A DNA stretch of 62,226 bases, counting the filler, from Rhabdomonas costata (taxonomy: Eukaryota): assembly GCA_019059605.1 (NCBI GenBank). It is 17 parts of 17 records of this genome, joined end to end, with 100 filler letters (N's around TTAATTAATTAA, not from the genome) between each part and the next. Parts side by side here need not be neighbours in the genome. Positions count along the whole stretch, not along the records: positions 36,616 to 40,198 come from JAHMHO010000728.1; 16 more parts are not named here. The stretch is one strand, 5' to 3'. Shown in pieces: positions 10,995 to 57,933 of this stretch (within the stretch, counting starts at the first letter, position 1; each line of letters begins with the position of its first letter). A program made the translations under genes and the position numbers. The notes under the pieces were generated by a model, which saw only the letters and a program-made list of their open reading frames with translations, was not told the DNA's origin and made no database searches.

Positions 10995-11200
10995 CTCTTC
11001 TTGACGTTCAGCTGCTGGCCGGTGAGCGAGACGTAGTCCATGGTGACCCGCCCAGCGTCCCGAACAGCTTCCCGGGTCCCCAGGGCGCTGGTGTCGTCGG
11101 CGTAGGCAGAGGGGATGGCCTTGGTCTCGGCGGAGATGGCCCGGGCCCACACCGACACCAGCAGGTTCAGCAGCACCACGCTGAGCGGGCAGCCCTGGAG
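10995..11200 (-). mobile_element. Non-LTR retrotransposon reverse transcriptase fragment (5'-truncated, runs off contig)
   Basis: LQGCPLSVVLLNLLVSVW...PSAYADDT...TGQQLNVKK matches the RT QGxPLS and YADD motifs; no stops; abrupt rise in GC-ending codons. Confidence 0.88.
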
Positions 11201-12630
11201 GAAGAAAGAAGACGGAGCCAGCGCCTGCACCCCTTCACCAATACAATTACCACGCACGCTTAAAGACACGAGGTTTGGGAAAGTAGACGAAGCTGCAAGT
11301 GCTTCCAGCCCTGCATCTCCAATCCTGTTTCCAGAAAAATCCAAAGACGTGAGGTTAGGGAAGAAAGTTGATGAGGCAAAAGCTTGCACTCCCTCAGCAT
11401 GGATCATGTTGCACCCAACATCCAGCAGTGTGAGTTTGGGAATAAAGCGAGATGTAGCAAAGCTCTGCATCCCAGGAGCCCCTATCCTGTTCCCACGAGC
11501 GACCAACGCAGTGAGGTTGGTGAAGAAGCGCGACTCCCCAAGCAAGCGCAGTCCTCCTGACGGGATAAGATTATTGCTGACATCCAGCGACACGAGGCTG
11601 GAGAAGAAGCGTGACGATGCCAACGCGTCCATACTCGTAAACGTAATCAGATTAGCCCTAACATCCAACGAAGTGAGGTTGCCAACGAAACTGAAGCCGC
11701 GAGCGCCCGCATCCCCTCCTCACGGATGTTGTCCCGCAGATTCAGGGACGTAACGTTGGCGAGGATAGGCAGCGTGGCAAGCGCTTGCATTCCCATGGCT
11801 TGGATATCGCAGTTAGGCACATTCAAAGCCGTGAAGCTGGGAAGCAAACAAGACCTAAGCAGCGCTTGAACCCCTCTGCCACCAATCGGGTTACGGAACA
11901 CCTCCAAGGACTGAAGGTTGGGGAAGGCAGACGAAGCCACGAGCGCCTGGATTCCCACAGTTCCGAACGAGTTGTCGCTCAGATTCAAGGAGGTGAGGTT
12001 GGGGAAGGCATGTGAAGTCGCAAGAGCTTGAAGACCCACGTCCCCAATTCGGTTCCAAATCCAAATTCAAATCCAACAAATCCAAGCTCTTGAGTTGGTG
12101 AAGAAAGCACTTGCAGCAAATGCTTGCACTCCCGCCGGCCCGATTTGGTTGTCCGCGGCACCCAAGCACGTGAGGTTGGAGAAGGAAGGGGAGCCCGCCA
12201 GCGCTTCCAATACTGCATCCCCACTTCGGTTGTGCGACACTTCCAAGGAAGTAAGGTTGGAAAAAGAGGCCTCGCAGAGTGTGCCCCAGCTTCTGGAACA
12301 TCGATGCAAAGCAAATTTTCCAGGAGGTTAATTCCTATAATTGAGACTTCCGCAGCCGAGCAACCCAGCCAGGTGTCATGCAAACGCACTTCCAAACCAT
12401 TTGTGAGGGTTTCTGGGATGCTGAGGATAACCTTCCACCCCGGGACGAAGAATGCGTCAATCAATGTTTGAAACTTGAGACACACCACTCGCAAGCTCAG
12501 ATGTTGTCTGAAGCCCAGATATCGAAAGGTGCACCCCAGGACATTCTCGGCGGAGAGGGCACTCTAGGGGCTTCCGCTCAGCTTATTTGAGTGTGAGCTT
12601 CCGCTCAGCTATTTCAGTGTGAGAAGCCAT
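11201..12630 (-). pseudogene. Frameshifted F-box/LRR paralogue of 37096-38886
   Basis: F-box-like LSAENVLGCTFRYLGFRQHLSLRVVCLKFQTLID...PGWKVILSIP, then 27-aa repeats (FPNLTSLD.S.N.IG..G.QALA.S) spread over several frames, with breaks near 12310, 12050-12085 (TTGGATT micro-duplications) and ~11700. Confidence 0.82.
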
Positions 12631-14282
12631 CTGAGAGGAAAAGCAGGTTTAGCATCAATGCACTATATTCTCTGCAATTCTGTAACTACGACACGAACGA
12701 GCAACACAGAGACGCGACCCAGATAATAGCATTTGTCCCCGTGCCAAAACTTAACGTCGAGGACTCGCCTTTTTGGATAACGCGTGTACCTAGAAGTACC
12801 TGAAAAGCAAAGGACCACTGAAAAAGCACCAAACGGGAAGACCTGCCATCGTAGAAGAAGTAACAGTAGGAGCCCACGGCAAGTGCGTTAAAACGCAGAG
12901 GGATAGCGTCACGTTATCTTTTGAAACCTCCACCTTCATGGCATACCTCCCCTCGGGGGTATTTGATGAGCCATACATGCCTGTCAGTTTTGTTCCTGAA
13001 GGGCAAAGGTGCTCCCGTAATTATTCCACTAAATGGGGGAAAGGGATAAATAAGATATCATTGACCCCCTCCCTCAATTCCGCAACTTTGTCACAACAAC
13101 GTTTTCGTCTCTTCACGGGCACGAGGCTAAGTCTCACCTGCATCATTGATGAGTTTCCAAGGAAAACCAGCATATGGAAGTTTCGCCTTCTTTTGCAGTA
13201 TTGTGTTCGCTCTTTTCAGAGTAGTTCTTTCCCCCCACTGGTGACAACCAGATGCATACATCGTTTCGAAGGTCAACAAGGACGACTCACAATGCACGGG
13301 CGACAAACCCGCAGTGGGTGTACAAAAAGGTCAGAATGTCCATTCCTCAAAATCCGCCAGAGCTCAAGACTCGCGCGTCTTCCGCACTGGGCAGGCCCAC
13401 AGAAGGGAGGGAGAAGCCTTCGGCCTGATATCCAAGCGGAAGGCCACCAATATCGGAATAGCGTCAAACAGCAACATGACCGGACGGCCAGCTCCACGGA
13501 CCACCCTTGGAAAACCTCGAAATGACATGAAAAATCATCAGCAGGTGTCGTGCCAAAGTGCAACTCGTCATCCCGTGCAGCCAAGCAACTGAACCAGCAG
13601 CATTGCGAATACTATAATCACGTCACGTTTTGATACCTGTCAAAAGTCAGGCAGCCAGCATCAGCGGCTGGAACTACGATGGCCCTCAGAAATCCTTAAT
13701 CGCAGCATCTGCAACCATCCGCAACCAGGGAGATGCTATGCTCACGATCCATCAGAGTCCATTTCTTGGCATGAAAAAGTCGAGGTTGCCCACCGTGAAG
13801 CCCATCACGAACCTACAGAGATCACCGCATGTTGTCATCCCATTTCGAGGCAGTATGAAGTCACCGGGAGTGTGCTCTTCATTCTGGAAAGAAACCTCAT
13901 TGAAGCCTGAAGCAACCCTCTTTCAGGCAAACGTACTCGGAACAAGCTGTACCCCGGCAGATCCCATTTCGCCCTCAATGTGAGTCGGGGGAGTGGTTTC
14001 ACTGAACCAACCATCCTCATAACCCCCGGGTTTGGGGTCAAGCCGACTTCGGGAGCCTGCGGACATGTTTGCTTGCTTTGCTTTGTTATGCTTTGATTGC
14101 TCCATGCGAGAATCCAAGCCTCCACGCTCCCCATTCCGAGGCATCGAATCTTCTTCCGCTGCCCGACCGTTTATCGGGAGCAGATCACCCCTCTGCTTCC
14201 AGGAAGAGAGGTTCTTGCAAAACATTACTGGCACATAACAGCGCATAAGCAAGCAAGCAAGCAAGCAAGCAAACACACGCAC

Positions 14283-14559
14283 TTGGGTGCACCACGACGC
14301 GGTCGTCGACGCAGACTCGAATGGGGCGGCCCTCGTAGTTGAACTTCACCTCGTACACCCCGTACCTTTCATCCATCCTCTCCACCACGCGCCTCACCCC
14401 CACCGACTCCAGCCGCACCGCCGTGGCCAGGGCGGCCAGGAACCAGCAGTCCCCCAGGGTGCCCTGCTGCACGTCGCTGATCCGGTTGCTGTCCGAGCAG
14501 AAGAACTGCTTCCCTTTGTACAGCTTGTGCGCGGGCATCCACATGCTTGGGCTCCAGTT
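14283..14559 (-). CDS. Calpain-like cysteine protease (CysPc) exon
   Basis: DVQQGTLGDCWFLAALA (catalytic Cys)...YGVYEVKF...VCVDD; GT donor at 14282; rest of the gene not traced. Confidence 0.85.
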
Positions 14560-15149: not shown

Positions 15150-17284
<2,135 letters not shown>

Positions 17285-26804: not shown

Positions 26805-29188
26805 ATGAGTACCTCCGCAATGCCTTTCTCCGGCCCCGAAGAACAGAATGCAGGCATGCTCTTGGATAGCATGTTTGACTGCCATAACTCTGAGATTTTG
26901 CACAAAACAGGCAGATCACCTCAAAGCCTCGGGATGAAACATAACCACTCAGTCTCTTCTGTGGTCAGATGTATGAAAGCAAAACTCCGTCCACCTCCAA
27001 AGGTTCTGCTGACCTCCGTTTCTGCCGTGCCTCGACCTCGACCTCGGCTTCGCTTTCTGCTTGCTCTGTATCCCTGTTCTAGTCACCGGATTGCACTTTG
27101 CGATAAATTTCAGGCAAAGACGACACGACTGGCGAGAGGCAGCGCTTTCTCCAAGAGTACCCAAATTACGACGCGGCCAAGATTGATGCCCTGCGAAAGA
27201 AGGAGTATGGGCGGCTGGACGAGCCGGATTACTCCACCGTGTACCTGGACTACACCGGGGGCAGCCTGTATGCGGAGCACGCTCAACTGGAGGCCTTCAC
27301 GGACCTCCTGAAGGCCTCCGTGCTGGGCAACCCGCACTCCATCAACCCCACCTCGCAGGCCTCGGACGCCCTGGTGGAGGCCGCGCGGGAGGCCGTGGCG
27401 GAGCACTTCCACGCCTCCGGGGAGTACGAGGTATGACAGACACCTGTGGGGTGTGGGGTTTAGCGTGTCTTGCCGAAAAAGGCTGCTGCCACTGCTCTTT
27501 CGCCGAAGACGTGGAAATGTTGAGTGTTTTCTTTATATCAGGTGACTTTCTCCTCGAGGTTGGCACGCACGTGAAAACGTGTGCTAGAGGTAAGACGCCA
27601 CTGTTTGTGGTGCCTCCGACAACGTGGAATGTCGACTGATTCTGGTCGCGTGTTACTCTTATTCAGGTGATTTTCACCTTGAATGCCTCGAATGCGGTGA
27701 AGACAGTGGGGCAGTGCTACCCTTTTGAGAATGGGCAGCTGCTGATGCTGACGGACAACCACAACCCCATCAATGGGCTGCGAGAGTACGCCAAGGCGGC
27801 GGGGGCGGCGGTGAGCTACGTCCCTGTTCGGAAGCCGGAGCTGCGTGCGTCGGAGCAGGACGTGCAGCGCCACCTGGGCACCCCGAGCACGGGAGGGCGA
27901 AGGCTCTTCGCGTACCCCGCCCAGTCCAACTTCTCCGGAGTGCAACATCCTTTGGGTATGGCTGTCACTTCAATGCTTCGCCGCTTTTTGACTTTTTTCT
28001 TTCGACAATCCCGTCGATGAACTTGCATTTGTGGTCATAGAGTGGATCGCGCAGGCGCACGCCCGTGGCTGGGACGTGCTTCTGGACGCCGCTGCGTTTG
28101 TGCCGACCAACGCGCTGGACCTTAGCCTGTGGAAGCCCGACTTCGTGGACGTCTCGTTCTACAAGATGTTTGGGCTTCCGACGGGGGTGGGGGCGCTTCT
28201 TGTGCGGAAGGAGAAGCTGTCTGTGCTGCGCCGGAAGGCCTTCTTCGGGGGCACCGTGGAGTACGTCGGCGTTGGGATGCAGACTTACATCCTGAAGAAG
28301 GGTCATGGCGGATTTGAGGACGGTACGGTGGACTACCTCAACATTCCTGCTGTGGAGATCGGCCTGCGGTTCTTGCGAGAGGTATTGCACTTCTATCGGG
28401 GGGGGGCTAGCTTATTTCTATGGTTTCAGTGGTTAATACGGACGGTTCTGCGCGGCACATACTCTATGGTGCCATATCGGACGTTGCCGCAGAACTCGGT
28501 GGAGCCCACTGCCTGAAGTGCGACCGGCCTTTATGGTACGCACTTTAGAGGAATGGTCGTGTGTGTTCGGCTCGACAAGGATAGTCCCGTTCTTCCAGCC
28601 GTCCGTGAGGGGTGGCGCTTGCTGTCCCTTCAAGTGGAAGTCTGTGAAGAATGGACGGTGAATTGACAGTTGGCAGCCAGCACTCCTCAAGGGTTCAAGT
28701 CACCATTGAGCTTCTTGCTCGATGGGGTTTGTGCAGAGGCACTTCGGTGGACCTGCCGCCATAGTCAGTCGTTATTCTGTGAGGTGGCAGCTACAATCTG
28801 GCCCTCCCACCAGTGTTTGTCGGAGGCTGAACGTCGTTGAGAAATTGTTGTCATCACCGGCTCGCGTCTCTGTCGATCCTATGGTGGGCACCATTTCAAT
28901 AGGGTTTGACCGCTTAATCTCCATCTAAACATTGCACAACTTTACAGCACCTGTTGAATCACATGTGGATAGTGCTCCATGCGCTCGCCGCTTCACATAA
29001 CCAGCGAGCGCTGCACAGCTTAGAATGACAAAGGGATTGTTTCACAAGTCCTTCGGTCTGCTCTTCTTTCTTTGCACTTGCCGCTTTCATTTGAATGTAT
29101 GGCAAAGCGCTGCCCTTCGGACCTTAGGTGGGCATCAACTCCATCCACGACCGAGTGCAGGCCCTGACGGGGTGGATGGAGTTGATGC
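26805..29188 (+). CDS. Molybdenum cofactor sulfurase-like PLP enzyme (class V aminotransferase), 3'-partial; exons 26805-26853, 27114-27430, 27667-27955, 28041-28381, 29128-contig end
   Basis: VYLDYTGGSLY, LGNPHS, VIFTLNAS, DNHN, YPAQSNFSG, VLLDAAAF, SFYKMFGLPTGVG (PLP Lys), FEDGT; phases consistent; first exon tentative (GC donor). Confidence 0.9.
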
Positions 29189-29463: not shown

Positions 29464-32400
29464 AATAGCCCTGCGGAGCGAGAGACCCTGTTTGCCAAGG
29501 CCTGTGACCTCGTGGAGCGCGATTTGCTTCCACTGGGAGTCACTGGAATTGAGGTTGGTTCCTGCTTCGGTTCCATCCTCATTCATTTGCTGCTACTGTG
29601 GGTTGGTGCATCTATGGCTCGAAACAAAGCACTTTGGGCCGCGGAGTGCGGAGTGCACTGGAGCGGTGACATCCTGGAAACATCTCACCAGGACATGTGC
29701 CTGCCGCTACCTGACTCCCCGAGACCAATGAGTTTACCTTGCATGCAACGCCAGCTAACCCCTTGCAAGCCTCTTTGCCGATTAGAAAGCACTCGATCCG
29801 GCCTTTGAGTGTGCTTCTGCTCATTTAGCTTCGTTTCATATGTTTCTGGTGTATCACAGGATAAACTACAAGGTGGGGTTCCCGAAGCTATTGCGCTCCT
29901 GCGGGGTTGTGGAATTCGGATCTGGCTGCTCACAGGGGACATGCAGGTGCCCCCCCCCCCATCTCGTTGTGCTTATTGTCAAAAGGAGTGTTGCTTTTGT
30001 GGGTAGCGTTCTAGACCCCTGTGGTGAACAGCGTGCGTGTCCGAACGCCTTGGTGTCTGATCTTTCAGCAAACGGCGGTGAACATCGCCTTCTCCTGTAA
30101 GCTGATCACTTCGGTACTGCTCTTCCCCCTCCCTTCCCTCACCTTCACCTTTCACTGCCTGCATTACGGCTCCAGGAGACTGCAGTGTTTGCTCTTTTCT
30201 GGGTCGTTGCCAGTCTTCCCATACCTTTTTTTTACGCTTGTTTTTATGTTAAATTACAAAACTCAAACGACACTATGGATGATCTTTGGGTGGGGGTGGT
30301 CGTGAAGGCTGACCCATGTAAATCTTTATCTTCAGTCAATGACGCAGCTGTTCATGGCGAGCACGTGTGAGGCGGCGGTGCTGGGAGAAATCGCCCAGAT
30401 CGGGCAGCTGGGGTGCGACCCGGCGAAGGTCGCCCTGATAACCACAGGTCATGTTGCTGCTGTTTTCTGTTTGCTGCCCATCGTCCGCCTGTCGCCTCAC
30501 CGTCACGTCATTGCTTTATCGTCTTTGCAAACATTCCCTGATTGCCTTTGGAGGGCATGCCTCTGCATTAGATTCATTCACAGGAAATTCTTATTGCAAA
30601 CCGCTGCCGAGGTTTCTTTGCCTCCCACTGAGATGCTCCAGGCTGATTTATTGGACTTTTTGTGCTCGGAGCCATACTACTAGTCCTATGTCTTGTCCTA
30701 GGTTTTGTGGCATAGATTCTCTGTACTGCCCCTGTTCATTTGCCCTGTGCATGCTTTGTGACCATTGTTTTGCCAACCTCTTAAAAGGGTACACGCTGGC
30801 GGTGGCTATGTCAGACTCTGTTCGCGAATCTTTCGCCGCGCTGGTGGTTCCCGTAGCCGTGGTGCTGTGCTGCCGGGTCAGCCCAGACCAGAAGGCCCAG
30901 GTGGTGCAGCTGATCCAAGGAAAGTCTTCGGTGGTCACCCTGGCCATCGGTATGTGATGGCCCTTGTTTGAAGCACCTCGATCTTTGCGCGTGTGCTCGT
31001 TTTCGACTGCTGGGACTTGTTGCCACAAAAACATGACAAACCAGCTTTTGCGGTTTCTCTGTTGCGAAAAAAGTTCGCTGGTGTGTTGCTTCCGTCCTTG
31101 AGTGTGCTTGATGATTTCTGTATTCCATGTCGGTATGACTTTGTGTCTGGGGTAACTTATGTAATTGGCTGGGTGGTCTTACGGCCTTCATGTGCTGCGG
31201 TCGTCACGCAAGTGCGGGGCTGTTGTTGGGGAGGCTGGGATTGGATTATTGTCGCAGTCTTGTTTGTGGTTCCTCTCATTTGAACCTCCCCCGTTTCTCT
31301 GGTAAGCGGTTTCGCCCCTTAGGCATCGTGCCTAGTCCTTGCCCTTCATTTTTTTTTGGCTTTTTGCAGAAAAGCAGCGGTGTGGTCCGTTGTTTGCTGA
31401 ATAGAGGGAGGGGGCACCATTTTGCACCCTTGAAAATGGAAATTCACTCTTTCGGGATTTTCGAGATGCAGCTGAATCATGGATGAGAACTGTCTCGTTC
31501 CGTTCAGGGGACGGCGCGAACGACGTCGCGATGCTGAAGGCTGCCCACGTCGGTGTGGGGATTTCAGGTAGGGAGGGGCACCAAGCGGTGATGGCCAGTG
31601 ACTTTGCAATCGCCCGGTTTCGGTTTCTGGCTCCACTGCTGATGGTGCATGGGCATTGGAGCTACCACAGGTGAGAGGCGTCGTCTTTATGTGCTAGCTT
31701 TTTGTGTCCGCCTGACACACTCAGAAGCACCCATCTCCTCCTGCATTGTCGCTGTCGTCGCTTTTTTGAAACACTCTTGAGATGTGACGTTTTCTTCACA
31801 TTTCTTCACATTTCTTCACATTTTGTGGGAAAGGCCAGGTATCCTGTGGTGTTTGGGCTTTGCTAATGGGCTGAAAGTGGTGGAAAGCAAAAAAAAACGT
31901 GTGCGGTTTCGGAATGCACCACTACCACCACCGCTGCCACTGCGCCACGACTACACTACTACTTCAACCACCACTACCACTCAGCAATGTTCATCTTACG
32001 TTTACATCCTCCAAGTTCCCTGCCGTGGAGCATGTAAAGAGTAAGAAAGGTGAGAGCCCTGCAAATGGTGGGGACGGGTGATCATCAGGTTGGCCCGCGT
32101 CGCCTTGTACACGATGTACAAGAACTTCCTGTTCGTGATGATTATCTTCATGTTCCAGTTTTTTGCGGGATTCTCTGACGAGACGACGATGGATGAAGTC
32201 GCACTGATGCTGTACAACATCATTTATACCACCCTTCCACCCCTGGTTATGGGAATACTCGACCAGGTAGGAGAGGAGGAGTGGGTTTTTCCTTTAGAAG
32301 CTTTTATTTTCTTCCGCGGCCCGGATGCCATCACGGGTCGGAGCAGCGTTGCCCGGAGGCCGGAGGGAAGCTCGGGGGGTGGAGGGATTAATTGGTGGCA

Positions 32401-32785
32401 GATGAGTCTCCGGATGACCAGCAACAAACAAACAGAAAAAATATTGCGCTGCAAATAGCTCGAAAACATCAGTCGCTGATCGGGGTCAGCTGATGTTCCC
32501 GACCGCTTGTGGCACGTTAAGTTATGGGGATGATGTGGGGGCGATCAGTTCTCTTTGTAGCATTGCTCCTTTGATGTGCGTTTATCTTCCAAGTTCTCTG
32601 CGAGGTGTAATATTTGAGTATGGCTGACATGACTTGCCACATTTCGTAATGCCTTGCTACGCCTCGTTTTCCTGTTTTCCTGCTCCACCATTTGGTTGAC
32701 CACACTCCCCAACACTTTGCAGGATGTGAGCCGAGAGCAGTTGAAGAGCATTCCCCGCTTGTACGCCTATGGGCGCTGCGACATG
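29464..32785 (+). CDS. P4-type ATPase (phospholipid flippase), internal fragment; exons 29464-29553, 29860-29946, 30069-30113, 30336-30447, 30788-30949, 31508-31670, 32089-32266, 32723-32785
   Basis: [89 protein letters not shown]; all GT-AG and phase-consistent. Confidence 0.95.
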
Positions 32786-33745: not shown

Positions 33746-36267
33746 ATGGACCCCGAGTGCGCCCCAGCCCCGGCGGAGGTGAAGCAGAAGAAGAAGAAGT
33801 CCGAGGTGTATCCCTGAAATGTTTCGACATACTTCTTGTTGTAAGTTATGCACAGACAACGACGACCTTTAATCCCTAGACCAACGCTGCGCAGTGCAGC
33901 CGTTTAGTCTGCATCGTGGGTCGCATTGAGAAAGAGTAATATGTACTACCTTCTCAGTGAAAAGACAGAACGAACAACCTTTGCAACGCAGGTTTATGGG
34001 CGATAAAAATACTAGTGATTTAGCTTGTCGGTTGCGGTCTTGAGCACATGAAACAAACTTGAGAGTGATGATTGAAAGATGCACATGTGTTCCTTGCGGA
34101 CGGAAAAACGGCACTTGAGAAAGGCTCTTCCCTCGACACAGGACGACGACGTTCCCGCGGACAAACGCGTGCGGGTGGCGGTGCGAATCCGGCCCTTCAA
34201 CAAGGCCGACCACGGCGACACCGCTGTGTGCATCAACGTGGAGAACAACAAGATCACAGTGGCTAACGAGGAGCGCAGCAGCAACTTCACATACGACCAC
34301 GTCTTCCAGGGCACCCAGGCAGAGGTGTACGCCTCCGTTGGGGAGCAGATGTTGCAGGATGCCTTCTCGGGCTACAACACCACGATCTTTGCGTACGGGC
34401 AAACGGGCAGTGGCAAGGCAATACTTCAATCTCGTCCTCGTCTATGCCCTGTGCCCTAGTTTTTTTCCTTGTATGGTCCCTTTTTCTTTCGGTTTTTTCA
34501 CAGTTACAATTCTGTCTCTTTTCGCTGTTCTGGGGGTTCTACCAGGTGGGCCTATCTAGCCTCTTCAGCCGACCTCCGGAACCTCATCATTCATCGGGGG
34601 CCTCATCGGAAATGGGGTGGCAGGACCACTTATTTCGGCCCAAAACCTCGTCCTCTTCGCTGGGCGACAATCGCCATGGTCACTCCACCACACCGGGAGG
34701 GCCCTTTTTGGGCCTCTGCAGGCCTGCATACTGAGCCTAAGCTTTCGGCTGGGCCTGCTCAGCAGACTTAAGGGCTGAGCCCAGGAATACCTTATGCGCT
34801 AGAGGCCCTTTTGGGGTGTTTTGGGGCCCTTTCGCATTAACACAGGCTTGGAAGGACCTTTTGTTTTGTCAAGCAAGCGCTTGCTTTACATCGGGCTTGG
34901 GTTTTGACAATAGAAAGAAATGTAGGCTGGCACACCGTCCGCCCACCTGCACGCGGGTGTGCCAGCAACGATTTTTTAATTGTTTTGTATTGGTAGTCCC
35001 ATCCGCTCCCTGGGCTTTCTGTAGCATTCCTTGAGGATCACCCCCTCTCTCTTTCTTGCTTTCCCCACTTATCTATCCATTCGCGAATGTCCCGCGGCCA
35101 CATCCTGGCTTTGGTGACTGCTTCTCCCTTTTGGATTGCTTCGCCAGATCATTCGTGGCTTTTACGGTATGAAACCTTGCTTCATGTTTTCAGCGGATTT
35201 CTGATTGGAGCCACTTGGACTATTTGCCATCGAGTGCTGAGAACCTTGGGTTGATCAGTGGCGGTTGTTGTGAGAAGTGGTGCCAGGCTTGCTGCACACA
35301 ATTGGGAGGAAACCGGGAGGGTGGAAGCCTAAATAAACTCATTCTTCGATGTGGCCACTGGTTATTTTTCCGCAGACCTACAGTATGCTGGGGGTGCAGG
35401 ACGACCCCGATCACATGGGCTTGCTCCCCCGTATCTGTCAGGAGCTGTTTGAGCTCTCTCAGGAGCTCATGGTGATGAACCCACCCTCTATGAGCCTCCG
35501 TCCTTTTTTCTGCCCCTCTGAGGGCGCCCTTGATGAGATACCCCTTCAGTCCAACCCAGCTTTTGCAAAGTCAAGGTGGCGCAGCGAACCCTTCCATATA
35601 TAGTACCCAACCCAACCACCGTAAACTGAGACTTTTGTCAGAGCCGGTGAAAGCACACGTCGCGGTACATGATCAGGTCAGTCAGTATGTTGCCTGATGG
35701 ATGGGTTGAAGGTGCACGCCAAACATTGAAAACATCCTTCATTGTTGTTCTCCAACATTGTCACCGTCAGAAAAATTTTCTTTACGCCGAAATTTCGGAG
35801 AATTACTCCAAAAAATCCCCGCGCTTTCGGCGCGCAAAGCTCACTTCCATACCGTATTTCGCCCCCAAAGTCAAAAGAGGCGAAATACGGTATGGAAATG
35901 AGCTTTGCGTGCCAAGTCAAATCCGCAATAATAGGTTGCTCATCTCCACGTACATTTTGGAGCAAAGCGGCATAACGACTTCTTCAGGATGAATAATCTC
36001 TGGTTTCGGGTGGAGCTAGCCTTACAATTGTGATGCTGCTGTCTGTGGCAATCCCTGAGAAGCAGTTACCGTTATTCCTCTGGAACGTGTCCTGGTTATT
36101 TTATTGGCATTTGTGCAATTGCTCGCTGCGCCTTCCTTATCGATCGCGAGGTGGAGTCTTGGTTTGGGCACTGGGCTTAGTCCGAAGACCCCTCGCTGAT
36201 CATCAAGATCCAGGTCTCCTTTGTGGAGATTTACAACGAGAAGATCCGGGACTTGCTCGAGTTCGAG
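33746..36267 (+). CDS. Kinesin motor protein (kinesin-3-like), 3'-partial; exons 33746-33805, 34142-34417, 35376-35471, 36181-36267
   Basis: VRVAVRIRP, FTYDHVF, GYNTTIFAYGQTGSGK|TYSMLG (P-loop split by an intron), GLLPRICQELF, VSFVEIYNEKIRDLL. Confidence 0.95.
35829..35913. repeat. Intronic inverted repeat, 35-bp arms
   Basis: GGCGCGCAAAGCTCACTTCCATACCGTATTTCGCC...GGCGAAATACGGTATGGAAATGAGCTTTGCGTGCC, 2 mismatches, 15-nt loop. Confidence 0.85.
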
Positions 36268-37095
36268 GTGAGGGCATTTGCCTGTGCACGTTGAAATTCC
36301 CTCCCAAATCAACCATACTTCCGCACCATCGCGCTGTACCTTTTCATCGCTTCCCATCTCACCACATGTGACTAACACTGACGGATCGCCTTTCTTCATT
36401 CTGTATAGTGCCTTTTTCCGCCCTCTTTTTTCTCGGCCCCGTCACCTCGGCATCAGAGGGTAGGTCAACAGGTGCATCTCAGCTTCCAGAGTCCACCACC
36501 ACCCCTCTCAAGCGGNNNNNNNNNNNNNNNNNNNNNNNNNNNNNNNNNNNNNNNNNNNNTTAATTAATTAANNNNNNNNNNNNNNNNNNNNNNNNNNNNN
36601 NNNNNNNNNNNNNNNTGTGGGGTGGTGGTTAGGGTTCACTGGCGCCGGTCCATCGCGGAGCTGTTCTGTAGTTTTCGCCCCCATCTCCCAGTTTCGCCGC
36701 GGCTTTTTCTTTTTGCTTTTTTTTGTTTTTGTCGAACTTGGAGCAGCCTTCTTTCTTGAGGATCTTAAGCGGCAGCTGTTATCTGCCCGTCCCTTTACCT
36801 TTTCGAAACGATGAGAAGCGAAGAACTATGCTCTCGCTACTCCTTCTTTTTCGCACTTCATTTCGGGTGCCCGTTTCGAAAGTCACGTCCCGAAATAACT
36901 CAGCACCTGAACAGGCAAACACCTTCGGTTCATTGGCTTGACTCCAAGCCGCCATTTTTGCCTATGGCATGTTACCTTTGGATCTCTTGGGGATGTATCA
37001 CCCTGCCTTCCTTGTTCAGGTGTTCAGCAAGGGTCAGGGGCTCCAAAATTGTGCTTCTTCAAATGTGAACGCTCAGCTTAACCTCTAGTTGTTGT

Positions 37096-38886
37096 ATGTG
37101 GTCTCTACCGATCTCCTTCGGCGATTCTCCTTCTCCTTTCCTTTCTGTTGTCAACAGTCTTCTTTCGCGCGAAAGAGAGATGATGTCGTGTTTTCCCCTT
37201 TCCGAGGACACATTGGTTTGCACGTTTCGGTTTCTAGGATTAAATTCGCATCTCAGCGTGCGGCTGGTTTGCAAGCCGTTTCAAAAGCTGATTGATCAGA
37301 ATCTTGCCCCGGAGTGGGCGGTTGTGCTCCGCATCCCAAAGACCCTAAAGGACCTCAGGAATGGGCAAAGTGTTGCTCCTGGCGTGCGTGTGGCTTGCTC
37401 CGCAGCCGTGATTTCAGTGAAAAGCAAGAAGCTGTTGGAACGCTTGCTTGGCGTCGGAACGGAAATGGCTGCGTGTTCCACCTCCTTATTCCCCAACCTT
37501 AATTCCTTGAACGTGAGCAGCACTGAAATCAGCGATCGGGAAATGGAAGCGTTTACAACCTCCTCTTTCTTCCCAAAGCTGACCTCCTTGAACTTGAGCA
37601 ACAATCAGATCGAGGCTGCAGGAATGCTAGCATTTGCCGTCTCCGCATCATTTCCCAATCTGGTCTCCTTGAACGTGAGCCACAATCTGATTAGCGATGC
37701 GGGAATGCAAGCTTTTGCAGCCTCCACTTTCTTCCCAAAGCTTACCTTCTTGAACGTGAGCTACGATCACATCGGCGAAGCGGGAATGCAAGCGTTTGCG
37801 GCCTCCTCGTTCTTCCCCAGCCTTACCTCATTGGCCTTGAGCTACAATTGGATCAGTGATGCGGGAATGCAAGTACTTGCAGCTTGCTCTTTCTTCCCCA
37901 ACCTCACCTTCCTGGATGCGAGCTGCAATCAGACCGGCGATGTGGGAATGCAAGCCCTAGCATCCTCCGCTTTCTTCTCCAACCTTACATCATTGGATGT
38001 GAGCCATAATCGGATCAATGATGCGGGAATTCAAGCGCTTGCAGCTTCCCCTTTCTTCCCCAAGCTTACCTTGTTGAACGTGAGCTTTAATCGGATCGAG
38101 GACGCGGGAATGCAAGCACTTGCATCTTCCGCTTTCTTCTCCAACCTTACCTCAGTGGAGGTGACGCGCAATCAAATTGGCGATGCGGGAATTCAAGCCC
38201 TTGCGGCGTCCTCTTTGTTTTCCAACCTCACGTCCTTGGCTGTGACCTTTTATCATATCGATGATGCGGGAACGCGCGCTCTTTTCACTTCCCCTTTCTT
38301 TCCAGAGCTTACCTCTTTGAATGTCCAAAGCAGTCAGATCGGCGATGCGGGAATGCAGGCACTTGCAGCTTCCCGTTTCTTCCCCAAGCTTACCTCCTTG
38401 ACTTTTGATTATGATCACTTCAGCTGTGCAGGAATGGAAGCACTTGCAGCTTCCCCTTTCTTTGAAAAGCTTACCCGTTTGGATGTGAGGCACAGTCGCA
38501 TCGAAGATGCGGGAATGCAAGCACTGTCAGCTTCCCATTTCTTCCCCAACCTTACCTCCTTGGATGCGAGCTACAATTGGATCGGCGACGCGGGAGTGCA
38601 ATCACTTGCAGCTTCCCATTTCTTCCCCAGCCTTTCCACCTTGTCTTTGAGCTTTAATGACATCAGTGATGCGGGGATGCAATCGCTTGCAGCCTCGACT
38701 TTCTTTCCCAACCTTCCCTCCTTGGATGTAAGCTTTAATCGGATCGGGGATGCGGGAATGGAATCACTTGCAGCATCGTCTTTTTTCCCCAAGCTTACCT
38801 CTCTGAATGTGGAGGAGAATCGGGTCGGCAGTGCGGGAATGCAAGCAGTTGCAGATTCTCCTTTCCTGCCCAAGCTTGCCTTCTGA
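37096..38886 (+). CDS. Intronless F-box + 17 x 27-aa leucine-rich-repeat protein (start probably the ATGATG at ~37180)
   Basis: F-box-like FPLSEDTLVCTFRFLGLNSHLSVRLVCKPFQKLID, then 17 tandem FFPxLTSLxVSxNxIxDAGMQALAAS units of 81 nt in a 596-codon ORF. Confidence 0.9.
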   Translation: MWSLPISFGDSPSPFLSVVNSLLSREREMMSCFPLSEDTLVCTFRFLGLNSHLSVRLVCKPFQKLIDQNLAPEWAVVLRIPKTLKDLRNGQSVAPGVRVACSAAVISVKSKKLLERLLGVGTEMAACSTSLFPNLNSLNVSSTEISDREMEAFTTSSFFPKLTSLNLSNNQIEAAGMLAFAVSASFPNLVSLNVSHNLISDAGMQAFAASTFFPKLTFLNVSYDHIGEAGMQAFAASSFFPSLTSLALSYNWISDAGMQVLAACSFFPNLTFLDASCNQTGDVGMQALASSAFFSNLTSLDVSHNRINDAGIQALAASPFFPKLTLLNVSFNRIEDAGMQALASSAFFSNLTSVEVTRNQIGDAGIQALAASSLFSNLTSLAVTFYHIDDAGTRALFTSPFFPELTSLNVQSSQIGDAGMQALAASRFFPKLTSLTFDYDHFSCAGMEALAASPFFEKLTRLDVRHSRIEDAGMQALSASHFFPNLTSLDASYNWIGDAGVQSLAASHFFPSLSTLSLSFNDISDAGMQSLAASTFFPNLPSLDVSFNRIGDAGMESLAASSFFPKLTSLNVEENRVGSAGMQAVADSPFLPKLAF

Positions 38887-39599
38887 ATGAGCGTCAATGA
38901 AGCATGTGCATACTTTGCTGTCTCACATCGTGAATGTGATGTTTTTAGCCACCGATGGAGTGAGTTTAGTTTCGAGGAGTGATACTTTTTCTGCCATCGA
39001 ATCGTTCGGTTAGGGGATTTTTTACTCCTGTGTGATCGAGTGTTGGTTGGGGGCCTTTGAGCGGAAACCAAAGATCAGCTCAGTGATTCGTCTGAAATGA
39101 GGTGTGGTGGGAAACGTGGTTGTGTTATATTCATGGGGAGTGAAAATATTTCGATTTTAAGGGAAGCAGCCGGCCACTGGGTGGTGGAGCCGCTATATGA
39201 GCTGCTGGGCTGTGATGGGTGCGGTTCGTCAAAAGCCTTGATTTGGTTTAGGAAAATGTTTGGATGTAAATTGAGTGGTGCGCGTGTAGTCCCTCAACTT
39301 GTCCTGAAACTTTCTCGTCGAAATTGCTATGCCAGAGGGAAACAACCGCATTTAATGCAAGGGGGTGTTGACCCCCCCTGGATTGCCGTGGATACGAGGC
39401 GTGTGGTTCATGCTATTCTAGATTTCGTTTAGATTGTGCCGCAGCACTTTCCAGGGAATCAAAGGAGCATCAAGAAGTTTTGTTACATTCTTCTTGTACA
39501 GCAAACTCCCAATTTCTCTCACTGTCAGGGTTTTTTGTGCTCTCCCTCACTCCCACACTCTGAGGTGTACGTCTCTGCGCGCTTTGGACCTGGACTTTC

Positions 39600-39922
39600 T
39601 GTACCTACGTTGTTTGATGGTGATGGTGAAGGCTTTGTTTTTGTGACCAGTGATGAGAGCAAATATTATATCGGAAAAGCTTTGTATCGTTCGAATAGCG
39701 ACGCAGGTGGCGGGAGGCATTATTTTCAAGATGGGCGATCCTTTTCGATATTACACCTGTATGGGTTGCCAGCCAAATATGTGTATGGACGATTGTGCTT
39801 CCTGGGAGCCCGGACAAGCTCGTGCCCCCTCTTCCCGCTCTGTTGTTGTCAGCAATGGAGTTGCACATGTTTCCTCCGTTGCAGAAGCAATCCATATCAT
39901 ATCCGCCGAAGTCACAGATTAG
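39600..39922 (+). pseudogene. Possible GIY-YIG endonuclease relic (Penelope-like?)
   Basis: EGFVFVTSDESKYYIGKALYR...KYVYGRLCFLG...P, then after a frameshift VAEAIHI; motif resemblance only. Confidence 0.35.
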
Positions 39923-40081
39923 ATAGTATGTAATTGTACCCACTCACACATCTGGCCAACAACCGACAAGCGGTGAACTACGCCTATGAAATTCTACAAC
40001 CAGGGGACTCGAGACTTGCCGCGACGCCAGTTGGTCCCATGGAGGAAGGAGGTCCCCGTATTAGCCGGCTCGCTATGCAAT

Positions 40082-40121
40082 CACACACACAGACACACAC
40101 ACACACACACACACACACACA
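40082..40121. repeat. (CA)n microsatellite; other dinucleotide runs at ~42710-42748 (CA), 53539-53581 (CT), 58642-58671 (GT), 60138-60167 (GA), 62145-62175 (GT)
   Basis: Direct inspection. Confidence 0.9.
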
Positions 40122-40760
40122 GCAAGCAGCCCCCAGTGCCCTGAATCAGTCCTTTCAGTTCAGTCGATTGCGTCGATTATGAAAAAGCACACAAAAACNN
40201 NNNNNNNNNNNNNNNNNNNNNNNNNNNNNNNNNNNNNNNNNNTTAATTAATTAANNNNNNNNNNNNNNNNNNNNNNNNNNNNNNNNNNNNNNNNNNNNGG
40301 GGGGGTGGGTCCTTTCTTTTTTCGTTGTTGTTTAACGGTAAGTCTTTCAGAAGCATGTCGTTGCTTCGGCGATGCTGTGAACTGTTGCATCGAGTTAATT
40401 TTGCTTATTCGGGATGTCTTGGGCCGCTAGGCGCAGCGGAACGGCCCAAGATCCCAGGTGCTAGTGCACTGCAGTCTCTGAAAAGGGTCCCCGAAGTGTG
40501 TTTGTTTGGTCTCGCCGGGGGTTGGGTTTCAATTTTGCAATTCTGTGAAGTTTTCATCAAAATTTTTACAGCGTCGTTTTTGTAAGTTCCAAAATTTTCA
40601 TCGGTGCAATCAAATTTTTTTATAGCGATCACAAAAGAATATTGAATTTTTATAGCACCGCTGTGTAGAAATTTTATGGCGATTGTTGTCCCACCTTCCC
40701 AGAGACCTTTTTCCTGGAGCATCGGTTTCGCCTGCTCGCACTCGTGTGCTTTGGGCGCAG

Positions 40761-47829: not shown

Positions 47830-50828
47830 AGCGACCGTGTCGGGGTGTCATGAGGCTGGCCTTGGCAGCGCAGCAACAGCCCTGCATACGCAGCCATCGC
47901 CTGTCCCAATCAAAAAGAAATAAAGAACAACCCCCGAGACCCCTCGCCACCTGTGACAAATAAAAAGAGAGAAAAACAGGTCCCCAATAAAATGCAGGCG
48001 AGCTTGAGCAGCCCGCCAACCTGGTAGAAGCCATACTGGTTGTGCACGTACTTGTGCTTCAAGCCGCCGAAGTGTTCTGCATTCTTGTCCATAGTGAGCT
48101 CAGTCCCACTGAATACAGATGGCTGTGAGAGTGAAAGTGCTGGGAAAGAAAGTGAAGAGACACTAAAAAGAAAAGCGCGGGCAAAAAAACACCCTTCAAC
48201 CTCATTCATATCAATCCACGTGTACAGAATCGGAGTCGATCCCTGAAGCAAAGTTACACCATCATCAGTGATCGGCTCATCTTTGCCAAAATTCAAGTGT
48301 GGGGAGACAAGCCGCGGGGAAACCTTGTAACGATCGTACTTGAACAGTGTGGCGTACCAATCACGCACCTCGGGGTTCACAAAGTCAAGCCAAGACGAAG
48401 AACCTGAACAAAGCAAGGAGATAAAACACGATATTACAGAGTTTGCCAAAAACTGTCTCATCTCAGAAAAAACGGAAAAATGCGAAAAACAGCTTTTCTA
48501 TAACTCCGATAGCAAATCGCAGAAAAAAAGCTAAAAACGGCTTCGAGACGCAGAGGGTTCACCAAGTCCGGAGAGGGTTCACAAAGTCCGGAGGTGCTGT
48601 TTTCTAACCACTTGGCCACTGGACTTGTTCCCGCAGCTTTTACCCTGCCTCTAAGGCATGGTATTCGACGTCATGCTGAACGTTACAGATTCAAAAAAAG
48701 AACTCGAATGTATCAGCGATTGTGTCCCAAGTCAACCATGAAGCAAACTACACAAGAAACTATCAAACATTATACGCCGTTATGTGACGAAAAAAAAATG
48801 CAAATCAACCTGGCCAGCAATGCCCTTCGAAGTCGGAGGCCCCACCAGCGTTCTTGATAAAGTAGCCTTTGGCCGTGGCTTCATCAAACACATAGTATCC
48901 CTGCGCCCGCTTGATGTGGGGGTCCGTAATTGTAACGAGCTTTTGAAGGAGAGCGATGGGAACATAAAAAGGCAACCTCAATTACAAAAACCCAGCTGTG
49001 ATAGCCTTACGCACCTTTCTGCCTTTCAACGCAATCTTCTCCTGCATTTGCTCTGGGTTCGGGAAGTTTTGTGGGTCCCAGGTGAAGTACCGCTTCCCAT
49101 CGGTGTGCTCAATATCCAGCCAAATGACGTCGTAGGGAATGTCGTGGGTATCAAAGCCCTCGTCCACCTGTAGAGTGTCCTCCTCGCTGCGATAATTCCA
49201 CCGGCACTGGTGGTATCCAAGCGCGAAGAGCGGAGGTAGGTGAGGCTTTCCTGGAATCCAGACAAGCAGCTCTCCAGCCATCCTAATACCGCTAAGGATA
49301 TATTGCTGAAAGCTCGCGAGTCAGCACACCAGTGAGGTACGACATCTGCTTGAGTACGTCCAGTGGCGTTGGCCCAGGAAGAAGGAAAACGTCCGCGATG
49401 CCACCTTCACTCTGCCATTTGGCGACTCTCCCATCAGAAACAGTCTGCAAAGAAAAGAAAATCAAAACCACACGCGGAAGAAAAATTATTGGTCCGTTGA
49501 ATCTTGCCAGAAAGAACGAAGAAACAGGAAGCAGGGACCAAAAGCAAGTCCTTGAAGTGAAAACTATTTGGGAGGGGACACGAAATGTAAAACAAATGGC
49601 TCAACGTCCAAGTCCACCCAACCCCCCCAGAACAAACACTGCAATCCCAGAGGAGACCTATTGCGAACTCTACACGTGGAAATCCCTGTTTGAGGTTTAC
49701 AGGAAGCAACTCATTAGTACAGTGCCCAAGCAAGCATCACACCTCCATCGTGCAAGATGTGTCCGCGGCATTCAGCCATACAAAACCGACCGTACGCGTG
49801 GTCGAATGCGCCATCAAATACGGCACGGCACCGTAAAGGCCTTGATCATTGTCGAGGGCATATTTAAAAATGTCCAAGTTCCACAGCCGGTACCTGAGAA
49901 GAACCAACGAAAGTCCCAAAAGCCCAAGATGATTTCCTCCTTCCTGAGGTTTGCTCGATATACGCCCTCACACACAAACAAACAAACCTATGTCCATCTT
50001 TGAGGCACAACACAACTGCACGTTCCGGGATGCCGTAAACCGTAACTGCTCCGTGAAAAGTCACAGAAGCTCCAACCTTCTCGGGTGAATCTAAAGGAAA
50101 CCAATGTAAAGACGTATAAAGAAACGGCAGCACGGTTGACCTGAGGTCGTTTAATGGAGATCCGAAAACAAACCAGCAGACCTTCCGATTTTTGATCCAA
50201 AGCAACGGAAATGGCGAGAACATCGTTGAGAAGGAAGTTCAGTGTTGAAGCAGTTTTGCTCGCGGTCAACAGAGACCTTTCCACCAGACCGTGCAACGAC
50301 CCTGAAGGAAAGAACACGCGTAAAATAAAACTGAAGAAGAAATGAGTGAAAGAAAATCCAAAGATGCTCATTTCCTTGAAGTACACATGCCGTGGGTGAA
50401 AGTGCGGTCTTCGCTGCTCTCTGAAAGAGAGTGCTTGTCCAAGGGGGAAGGCACAATGACATCTTTGACTTCGTATCCACCGTCGGATCTACGTATTCTC
50501 CAGATGCCATAATCATAGCTGTTGACCTGCCAAACAGAAGGAAGAACTAACCACCCAAACAAAAATCACATCGTGGTGTGCAGCAGGACCGCTTGGCTGC
50601 TTTCACAGGAAAACAGGATGCTGGGAAAAGAGGTAAATTGGCGAGCAAAATTGCTTTGCAAAAAAGTGATGCAAAAAATATGCAAAAATGTGCAAAAGCC
50701 CAAAGCCTTATTACAAGGGCAAGCATCAGAAGGGTTTGCGTCTGCTTCAGCAGGCACCAAGTGTGGGGGGTATGCAACTCCGTAACCTCCCACGGTGAAA
50801 TGCAGCACATCATAACTTCCCGCCTCTA
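47830..50828 (-). CDS. GANAB: GH31 neutral alpha-glucosidase (glucosidase II alpha-like), internal fragment, ~11 exons
   Basis: [102 protein letters not shown] (catalytic nucleophile), HNQYG. Confidence 0.9.
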
Positions 50829-55554: not shown

Positions 55555-57933
55555 CGCAGAGGGCCTCAGGAAGCGCATGAAGTTCCCAAGCAGCTCGAAC
55601 TGCGAGAACCCCCCGGTGTGCGCGATGTCGCACTTGCGGCGGAAGTCCTCCATCACCGCCACGGGGAGCTCTCTCCCAAGTGTCTTCTTCACAGCACCTC
55701 TCACATCCGCTGCAGACCCGACCCATCACAAACCTCGTCCTTTTCTTCGACTGCTTTCAATTGCTTTGATAATAAGTCGGCGAAAGATTCTGGATCACAA
55801 GGGATGAGGGATTCTTCAGACTGACCGAAAATTTCCAGGAAGGAAGAGACTGATAGTGAGAAGTACCACCGACAGCCAGCGCCACGAATTTGCAAAACCA
55901 TCCCCAGGATGCCTCCGTCACAGCGCAGACAAAAGCTCACTGGTTGTCTGCAACTGAAGCCAGGCGTAGGTTCGATTGCTCGGCTTTATCATCCGACCTG
56001 TTAGTTCTTGAGCGGATAGCGTGAACTTGACCCAATGCGTGGGAGCTCTGCACGAAACACGAGTGAGATTGGCCCAGGCAAGGTCATGTTACGTTGCTTT
56101 CCAAGGGCACAGTTCCCGGAGATGATGCTGGGCCACAGCCGAGAACAGAACGGATGGTGGATTTCATAAATTTGTTCCGCACCTCCGAGCACCGTGGAAG
56201 CGAGAAATAGGATCAGAGAGGGGTGAAGACCGAGGATGGAGGTGGGCAGCACCACCGGCAGCTGCAGCATGCAGTCCAGGGTTTCGGAAATCCCCACCAG
56301 ATGCCGCACTGCCGCGCCGTAGGGGTTGTCGAGAGGCTGGCATGCCCACTGCGGGCGCCACCCAGTGTCCTGGGGTGTGTACAGGAGCAAGCGCTTGCTT
56401 GTTTTGCATTGGTGATCCATTGGCGGGGATCCATTGGGGTTTCAAGCTGTATGCAGGAGTGGGAAACGTACAATGACATGCCGCGGAACTCTCCGTAAAC
56501 ACTTGACGCGGCAGAAACAATACAACAAAGCACAAAGAAAAAAGGCCAGAGAACAGGAACAAAGCTGAATGGCGATTTCGCACCAAACCAAGCGACCTCC
56601 TGATGAAGTAAGGAAGTCCGAAAAAAGACGAAAAGGAAAAATAAGAAAAGGAAAAAAAAAAGGTGAGAAAAGGAAACGGGAAAGGTAAGTCTGTCGAATG
56701 AAGCAAGTTTCCCTCTGCCACGGAACCATGTGAAACGAAGCGATCTCCCCCCACACACAAGCAGCGCATTCCAAAGTTGCTGACCAAAACCAGTGGTAGA
56801 GGAGCTTTGGGGCCCTGGACATGTTGTGAACTAGGGATAGGGGGAGGGGAGGGGAAGGAGAGAGGGAGGAGCATTCTGCATTCCTTCGGAAAGACAGTGG
56901 AGGGCACCACGGGACGGTCAAACATGTTGTCCACATCAGTGAACATCACCCACTCCGCGTCGGTGAACTCGTCAGCATAGATGTTGGCCAGCTGCTGGTG
57001 AAGGTAGCCGTAGCCAAAGTGGTGCTGGGTGAAAACACGAAGAAAAAACGCAACCCTCCTAGTCCTGGGGAAAAAGAACCTACTAAGGACAGATAAGAAA
57101 CAGGAACTGATGCGGTGGGAGGGGGGGCAGAGAGAACAGCGGGCCATGGAATGGGAATGGTGACACTGACACCAAGGCCGCACGTGACGCTTAATTCCAT
57201 TAATTCACTTCAAAACTGAGAACAGAATATTTTCGCCCCAAAAGCGACCTTTTCGGACTTCATAGCAAAAAAAAATAAAGAAAAATGAAAACTTCTACCC
57301 GTTCCCCACTTTGCTTTAAATGTGTAATTGTCTAGCATGCTTCCCGATCGGAGGTAAACAACAACAACAACAACAACAACACTTTTGATGTGAAGCGGAC
57401 CACATTATTACATATTGCCCCTTCGCTCATTTCGCCTCGCTTGCGCACTGCAGTGAGACATAAGCAACCCAACCCGAGAAAAAGGCCGCCAGCATAGCGC
57501 CGACAAGTTCGGTACATTACGCCGCAGTACCAACAAACAACTGACAACTAACGGAGTGGTTGACATGTCTCGGAGCTATTGCACTTCAGCCTTTCTTTCA
57601 AAAGAGGAGAGGTGGCACACAGCACCCACACAAGCCCACACGTGCGCTGCACACTGTGACTCACCGTTCCGCAAAAAGGGGGCCGGTCCGGAGGCATCAG
57701 GTGGAAGCCCCGCACCTTAGCCTGAGGAAGCACCTCACGGGCGCCCCTCGCCACCGCAAACCGGTGCTCCTTCTCCGTCAGCAGCAATACCTCCCGCAGA
57801 CCGTCCATCCAAACTCGCCGCCGCAGCGAGGCCGCCCACACCCGCAGCCACGGCAGGTCCGAGGGCAGAGTGACCACCACAAGGGCGGTGCTGCGGAATC
57901 TCCGGAGGCTCTCTGGGTCCTCTTTCCCGGAAG
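55555..57933 (-). CDS. Orphan GT-A-like protein (DUF6492-like), partial; exons 57933-57665, 57024-56884, 56393-56231, 55709-55555 (a further upstream exon likely at ~58352-58450)
   Basis: TALVVVTLPSDLPWL..AASL; GYLHQQLANIYADEFTDAEWVMFTDVDNMFDRPV (DxD); LLLYTP; DCMLQLPVVLP; FSQFELLGNF. One intron lacks a good GT donor. Confidence 0.65.

Follow-up and report, generated by a model that had tools for sequence, protein, structure and literature searches.

F-box/LRR adaptors are among the commonest routes by which eukaryotes select the proteins they ubiquitinate, and there is ample documentation of lineage-specific expansions of such genes, which often lack introns. The FBXL/CC-LRR receptors of SCF ligases (Skp2, FBXL2, TIR1, COI1 and D3) combine an F-box with an LRR horseshoe, and their presumed common mode of action is docking on Skp1 with the substrate held on the LRR. 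In bacteria, the GALA/RipG proteins of Ralstonia are secreted type III effectors, and the family has been catalogued (Peeters et al. 2013, PMC3878972). The 24-residue GALA-LRR and the related GL- and CC-LRRs were defined by Kajava et al. (2008, PMC2244805); the sections of that article used here place F-box proteins with repeats of these types in plants, animals and protists, report related repeats in Gemmata and Parachlamydia, and describe an updated CC-LRR subfamily in which the ladder residue (C/N/T) is followed by I-T/G-D, helix contacts are made by small residues and a unit spans 24-26 residues. Families of the NEX1a type in amoeba symbionts comprise up to 138 members with dN/dS values of 0.29-0.63, and no positive selection is reported in the parts of that study drawn on here (Domman et al. 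2014, PMC4209131). For intronless FBX genes, the portion of a further survey consulted gives 44% in Arabidopsis lyrata and 39.5% in rice (PMC6651606). For Naegleria and other protists, the open-access literature yielded no specific description of F-box/LRR families.

We report the analysis of one F-box/LRR gene within a 62,226-nt stretch of DNA (hereafter the window). With a probability of roughly two thirds, we take it to be a native single-exon gene of the FBXL type, composed of a divergent F-box, a family-specific linker of ≈50 amino acids and ≈17.7 LRRs of 27 residues, that acts as an ordinary SCF adaptor. Under this reading the F-box would attach the protein, via Skp1, to a ubiquitin ligase of the SCF type (Skp1-Cullin-F-box), and the LRRs would hold a substrate protein on their concave side for ubiquitination. 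The features of the gene are:

37096..38886, plus strand: F-box/LRR open reading frame, 596 codons and a stop codon, uninterrupted, no intron
37180..37185, plus strand: Met29-Met30, the likelier start, directly before the F-box-like motif
37195..37299, plus strand: divergent F-box (PLSEDTLVCTFRFLGLNSHLSVRLVCKPFQKLIDQ), below the cutoff of Pfam PF00646, with family-level and hhalign support
37300..37452, plus strand: family-specific linker (P-x-W-x-VVLR ... CSAA-x-IS ... LL-x-x-LL), ≈50 aa, without a Pfam match
37453..38829, plus strand: 17 in-phase LRR units of 27 aa (81 nt), consensus LTSLNVSxNxIGDAGMQALAASxFFPx
38830..38886, plus strand: partial 18th unit (SAGMQAVADSPFLPKLAF) and stop codon

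The window is made up of 17 pieces, each 3548-3654 nt long (≈3.56 kb), joined by spacers of the form N44-TTAATTAATTAA-N44, and the gene lies on piece 11 (36616-40198). The preliminary description of this DNA had spoken of "only 17 contigs", which is a misreading of these joined pieces, and the copy number of the family is for this reason not derivable from the window. The uninterrupted, intronless frame that had been described within an intron-rich genome was recovered at the same coordinates (596 aa); its open frame, at 605 codons, is the longest in the window and the next two have 346 and 293 codons. With respect to the start codon, a Met is located 4-12 residues before the same motif in six of seven database relatives (P0121-P0125 and P0127), and on sequence comparison the true start is probably Met29/30 (37180) and not Met1.

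In the other pieces, and with the LRR copies set aside, Pfam matches were obtained for 8 of 122 open frames of at least 118 aa, and the matched, exon-sized fragments correspond to RMI1, calpain, NAD-dependent epimerase, class-V aminotransferase, P4-ATPase, kinesin and GH31. In a finer scan of three pieces the P4-ATPase C-domain was found to be split into profile positions 1-28 and 27-92 with ≈410 nt between them, and the kinesin motor into positions 1-89 and 123-145 with ≈1.8 kb between them. The boundaries of the P4-ATPase intron are canonical (CAG|GTGAGA ... ATCAG|G). The source genome is thus characterized by GT-AG introns of ≈0.4-1.8 kb and a GC content of ≈51%, and the split genes together with the canonical intron indicate that it is that of an intron-rich eukaryote; the earlier remark that the other genes in this DNA are broken agrees with these exon-sized fragments. 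No Rfam family was predicted anywhere in the window. A (CA)20 microsatellite is present on piece 11, 1.2 kb downstream of the gene.

The GC content of piece 11 is 0.498 (rounded, 0.50), as compared to 0.46-0.57 for the other pieces. The GC3 of the open reading frame (0.58) is lower than that of the pooled conserved exons (0.73), yet within the range of individual exons (0.52-0.92), and the frame shows less codon bias than these exons do.

The repeat array is highly regular in length. TRF assigned it a period of 81, 16.7 copies, 71% matches and 1% indels, and when the protein was divided into 27-residue segments starting at residue 120, 17 in-phase units with zero indels and the partial 18th resulted. 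The units had been described as 17 exact 81-nt units on an invariant DNA scaffold. The first statement holds for length and phase only, since at the DNA level the units are 57-83% identical to one another (mean 70%, without any higher-order lag structure) and few columns are invariant. The second is overstated: 10 of the 81 nucleotide columns are invariant, and the blocks that had been named as scaffold, GATGCGGGAATGCAAGC and TTCTTCCCCAA[C/G]CTTACCTC, are each exact in two units (with at most one mismatch, the former occurs at nine sites within the gene and the latter at six). Even the helix 7-mer of the supposed scaffold (DAGMQAL) is distinct in 14 of 17 units. Conservation at the three codon positions is 0.815, 0.863 and 0.756, which shows that the third positions are the freest; the constraint acts on the protein and not on a DNA scaffold. 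The array would stem from an old tandem duplication of the 81-nt unit, after which the units would have drifted under purifying selection on the fold. No recent unit duplication was detected among the units, the highest unit-to-unit DNA identity being 83%.

Pfam LRR_6 matched the protein over 12 stretches at 2.7e-82 (264.8 bits, cutoff 23.4), and the only NCBIfam match was a sub-threshold one to the STM4015 LRR. By sequence the best solved relative is the LRR domain of Ralstonia GALA/RipG4 (9j7j, 1.3e-31); ribonuclease inhibitors and NLRP LRRs come next. A single-sequence AlphaFold model (mean pLDDT 64.6, ≈70 for the LRR part) predicts a solenoid of alternating strands and helices in the LRR part that matches those of ribonuclease inhibitor and RipG4, and Foldseek ordered the relatives as RipG4, ribonuclease inhibitor and then the F-box receptors TIR1, COI1, D3, FBXL2 and FBXL17. 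The resemblance to GALA- and RI-type repeats that had been pointed out previously is thus borne out by both the sequence and the fold matches. With respect to repeat class, the protein shares the core N-x-I-G-D-x-G-x-x-A-L-A with the GALA/RipG effectors, as well as the F-box plus LRR architecture, but the GALA repeat (period 24 in P0003 and P0120) is shorter by the three residues that the present protein has in the S-x-FFP loop, and the HMMER alignment with 9j7j required three-residue gaps in every unit. The period of 27 departs from the 24-residue GALA-LRR definition; N-x-I-G-D-A-G is present in most units, and the length lies just outside the 24-26 residues of CC-LRRs. Compared to the FBXL/CC-LRR receptors, which occupy ranks 5-46 among the fold matches and share the F-box and the horseshoe, the protein has Asn for Cys at the ladder position and far more regular units; no sequence orthology to any named FBXL was detectable.

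A period of 27 is also found in two other groups. The planctomycete TIGR02996 LRR proteins (for example P0019 and P0052) likewise have a 27-residue repeat, with the consensus IGD-x-GA-x-ALA-x-SP-x-L-x-x-LT-x-L and at most 47% identity over the LRRs; they are, however, bacterial and carry an N-terminal TIGR02996 domain instead of an F-box. The F-box LRR proteins of Naegleria (P0008, P0009, P0035) are built like the present protein: the F-box is N-terminal, and behind it come RI-like/LRR_6 repeats in which a period of 27 residues dominates and the strand is of the NLTSLNL type, but the identity is 27-29% only, the linker is unrelated and the repeats are less regular.

The N-terminus of the protein carries PLSEDTLVCTFRFLGLNSHLSVRLVCKPFQKLID. 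PF00646 scored 16.5 bits on the full open reading frame and 19.7 bits on the trimmed N-terminus, both lower than the gathering cutoff of 20.5, and the F-box-like PF12937 scored 11.7 and 15.0 bits, respectively, against a cutoff of 24.3. Across the family, PF00646 matched seven of eight N-termini at E≤1 (best 2.9e-6) and PF12937 matched six of the eight, and a profile-profile comparison (hhalign) of the family with the F-boxes of five annotated F-box/LRR proteins gave 88% with an E-value of 2.9e-6 over 35 columns. Searching PDB profiles with the N-terminal module retrieved the F-box of cyclin-F at E 0.19 only. An AF2 prediction from the eight-sequence alignment gave three consecutive helices over the F-box motif (pLDDT 63-69, overall 50); as a single sequence the N-terminus reached pLDDT 38-41, and the N-terminal models were, due to their low confidence, left out of the fold search. 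In a comparison with a protein atlas, residues 1-110 gave leads, at scores of at most 0.90, to F-box and F-box/LRR clusters, some of them giant-viral. Judged from these sequence profiles, the motif is homologous to the F-box at the profile, or family, level, and the putative F-box may dock on Skp1 within an SCF ligase. The family-wide PF00646 matches together with the profile-profile comparison give an architecture of F-box, ≈50-aa family-specific linker and LRRs, in keeping with the F-box/LRR architecture proposed earlier.

The linker matched no known domain in Pfam. It is kept in a second copy on piece 4 (46% identity over the N-terminal module) and in P0121-P0126. The NEX1a expansions of the Parachlamydiaceae likewise combine an F-box, a conserved linker of ≈50 aa of unknown function and a variable number of LRRs, as far as the portion of their description used here goes (PMC4209131); they form a multi-copy family found in bacterial symbionts, and the likeness noted here is one of architecture and of the generic LRR.

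To identify relatives, a profile of the N-terminal modules of both copies in the window was searched exhaustively with HMMER against 1.84 billion representatives. Seven proteins only were retrieved (E 2e-28 to 8e-4), all short (61-222 aa). Six of them start with a Met shortly before the F-box motif and, where long enough, continue into FFPNLTSL repeats, while the seventh begins inside the linker. That only seven short matches were found in a set of this size suggests a small, lineage-restricted known family. The Naegleria F-box proteins were not retrieved by the N-terminal module, nor did word-indexed searches with it give any match among proteins of 327-1043 aa or 30-326 aa. One metagenome locus (L002) was rejected as a false positive: its match lies antisense to a glycosyltransferase-like ORF, the contig is of prokaryote type and the locus has no LRRs. 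On viral contigs nine pattern matches and one locus at 24% identity (E 9e-4) were obtained, which we do not consider meaningful.

The second copy, a diverged paralogue already noticed in the preliminary description, was the only other one found in the window by tblastn; it shares 36-50% amino acid identity with the main gene and is spread over three frames. Its features are:

11201..12563, minus strand: diverged second copy (F-box-like module, linker and LRRs) on piece 4, with four frame changes
10997..11200, minus strand: reverse-transcriptase-like fragment (YADD, GC3 0.93) that directly adjoins the second copy at its truncated 3' end and runs off the piece

The second copy has a stop codon where the main gene has Met-Met and lacks an in-frame ATG. 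Its frame changes are located at approximately 12290, 12095, 12050 and 11715, one pair of which flanks a slippage insert (TTGGATTTG), and its LRR array ends in the middle of a unit at ≈11200, from where the frame runs on into the GC3-rich (0.93) YADD stretch. RVT_1 matched this fragment over profile positions 121-188 of 205 (E 0.0019, 18.4 bits, cutoff 29.6). The four frame changes, the absence of an ATG and the run into the reverse-transcriptase fragment suggest that the copy is probably a pseudogene, and most simply the sequence reads as a copy interrupted by a retroelement that lacks its 5' part, although errors in the assembly, or an exon further upstream, could also explain these features. 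A calpain exon lies ≈1.6 kb upstream of the second copy on the same strand, and the family hence sits in eukaryotic DNA.

These data bear on where the gene came from. That it derives from bacteria, either as symbiont or pathogen contamination with a GALA-like effector or by recent horizontal transfer into a eukaryote, would be in line with its intronless structure, with GALA RipG4 as the best solved relative, with best matches that include Ralstonia GALA and planctomycete TIGR02996 proteins (31-47% identity; P0003, P0019, P0052, P0120) and with a GC3 below that of the conserved exons. The similarity to bacterial proteins is, however, restricted to the LRR consensus, the GALA period is 24 and not 27, and the searches with the N-terminal module retrieved no bacterial-type protein. 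Moreover, the GC content matches that of the other pieces, the second copy shares its fragment with a calpain exon and a reverse-transcriptase fragment, piece 11 has the downstream microsatellite, and the same F-box plus 27-aa LRR architecture exists in Naegleria. The horizontal transfer suggested earlier thus finds no counterpart in the composition of the gene or in the setting of its paralogue, and we consider a bacterial origin very improbable; unlike the secreted bacterial effectors, the gene stands in a eukaryotic context.

Retroposition had also been suggested. The main gene is intronless, but no poly(A) remnant or target-site duplication accompanies it as would be expected of a processed retrocopy: downstream there are no A or T runs of 7 or more (the only such run is a T8 ≈380 nt upstream), within 700 nt there is no AATAAA or ATTAAA, and there are no flanking direct repeats of at least 12 nt. 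Spliced-leader relics were sought with one dinoflagellate and one euglenid motif, with 0 matches at up to three mismatches. The same observations speak against the main gene being a non-functional or decaying copy, i.e. a silent retrocopy or young pseudogene that is still open by chance. Although the window's one other copy is probably a pseudogene and codon bias in the main gene falls short of that in conserved exons, the main gene has kept 596 codons open where the second-longest open frame of the window has 346; conservation in it is lowest at third codon positions, and its pN/pS stays under 1 (see below). We find such decay unlikely, and the native single-exon gene is presumably expressed.

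The units differ most in the strand. Per-column entropy peaks at positions 8 (2.75 bits), 10 (2.54) and 5 (2.13), followed by loop position 23 (2.42) and position 12 (1.97). All nine strand motifs quoted previously were found, and the strand 7-mers (unit columns 3-9) are distinct in 17 of 17 units. Positions 5, 8 and 10 are the solvent-exposed 'x' of LxxLxLxxNxL and are variable in every LRR family. Selection on the units was estimated by a Nei-Gojobori-style count of pN/pS over all unit pairs with bootstrapping over units. The value is 0.61 for the whole unit, 0.55 for helix and loop, 0.65 (bootstrap 0.49-0.90) for the concave positions 2, 3, 5, 7 and 8, and 0.63 for positions 5, 7, 8 and 10. 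The comparison is a weak one, since it sets paralogous repeats against each other at synonymous sites close to saturation (pS up to 0.76). The single columns with pN/pS >1 (16, 23 and 27) include none on the concave strand. There is accordingly no hint of diversifying selection, with concave positions (0.65) similar to the rest of the unit (0.55), and the unit-to-unit differences are those of ordinary exposed LRR positions and not the mark of a dedicated diversity-generating system.

Exchange of units between loci, the "cassette shuffling" put forward earlier, was assessed for the two loci in the window. Over 81 nt without gaps they reach 72% identity at best, the long blastn alignments lie at ≈66%, and no exact word of more than 19 nt is shared; this low identity and short word mean that the two loci give no sign of unit exchange. 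The idea behind it was a large, fast-diversifying, immune-like repertoire of SCF receptors that exchange repeat cassettes between loci and act against viruses or symbionts. It could draw on the presence of copies in 2 of the 17 pieces, on at least nine mutually divergent members (counting the seven database representatives, clustered at 50% identity), on the entropy maxima of 2.1-2.75 bits in the strand (positions 5, 8 and 10) and on the uniqueness of all 17 strand 7-mers. Yet concave pN/pS does not exceed that of the rest of the unit, no two units are more than 83% identical as recent duplicates would be, per-unit identity between the loci is at most 72%, the second copy is broken and the N-terminal relatives number seven among 1.84 billion representatives. 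The 2 of 17 count, furthermore, is no measure of family size, and repeated sequence is overrepresented among short contigs. We regard such a repertoire as improbable, and an anti-viral or anti-symbiont role of the family is pure speculation. Slightly less probable still, in our estimation, is a lineage-restricted family that is very abundant in the genome (from two matches in ≈60 kb of sampled sequence), forms a diversified SCF "immune" repertoire for intracellular recognition in an under-sampled lineage of protists and has the linker as a new adaptor element.

We thus favour an ordinary FBXL-type adaptor, in which the putative F-box would bind Skp1 and the LRRs would serve as the substrate receptor. 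The gene would be of wider importance only if a genome-wide census revealed a very large, positively selected family, and the present evidence points otherwise. What it adds is a tidy example of an F-box/LRR protein with 27-residue repeats from a poorly sampled eukaryote, unusual in the high regularity of its repeat and in an N-terminal linker that has almost no relatives in public data.

The window (1-62226) consists of 17 pieces, each approximately 3.56 kb, separated by spacers of the form N44-TTAATTAATTAA-N44, and because it is a concatenation of separate pieces, distances and synteny across the spacers are meaningless. Exon fragments of seven other genes were identified, and in these the GC content at third codon positions (GC3) is mostly 0.7-0.9:

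4628-5074, minus strand, RMI1 exon fragment
14188-14559, minus strand, calpain exon fragment
15150-15677, plus strand, NAD-dependent epimerase exon fragment
27992-28513, plus strand, class-V aminotransferase exon fragment
31405-32455, plus strand, P4-ATPase exon fragments
34076-36291, plus strand, kinesin exon fragments
47913-48497, minus strand, GH31 glycosidase exon fragment

The P4-ATPase gene is split by a GT-AG intron of ~417 nt, which contains the mini-repeat TTCTTCACAT in three copies (31790-31825). The second-longest open frame in the window (56167-57204, minus strand, 346 codons) gave no Pfam match at E≤0.001. A (CA)20 microsatellite (40082-40121) is present on the same piece as the F-box/LRR ORF, 1.2 kb downstream of it.

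Two further features concern the second, diverged F-box/LRR copy on piece 4:

12050-12095, minus strand, short TTGGATTTG-type slippage insert within one LRR unit
10997-11200, minus strand, fragment resembling a reverse transcriptase and carrying a YADD motif (match to RVT_1 at profile positions 121-188, E 0.0019)

The slippage insert is flanked by two frame changes, one on each side. The reverse-transcriptase-like fragment, with a very high GC3 (0.93), is fused in frame with the truncated LRR pseudogene and extends past the end of piece 4; it appears to be a non-LTR element truncated at the 5' end.
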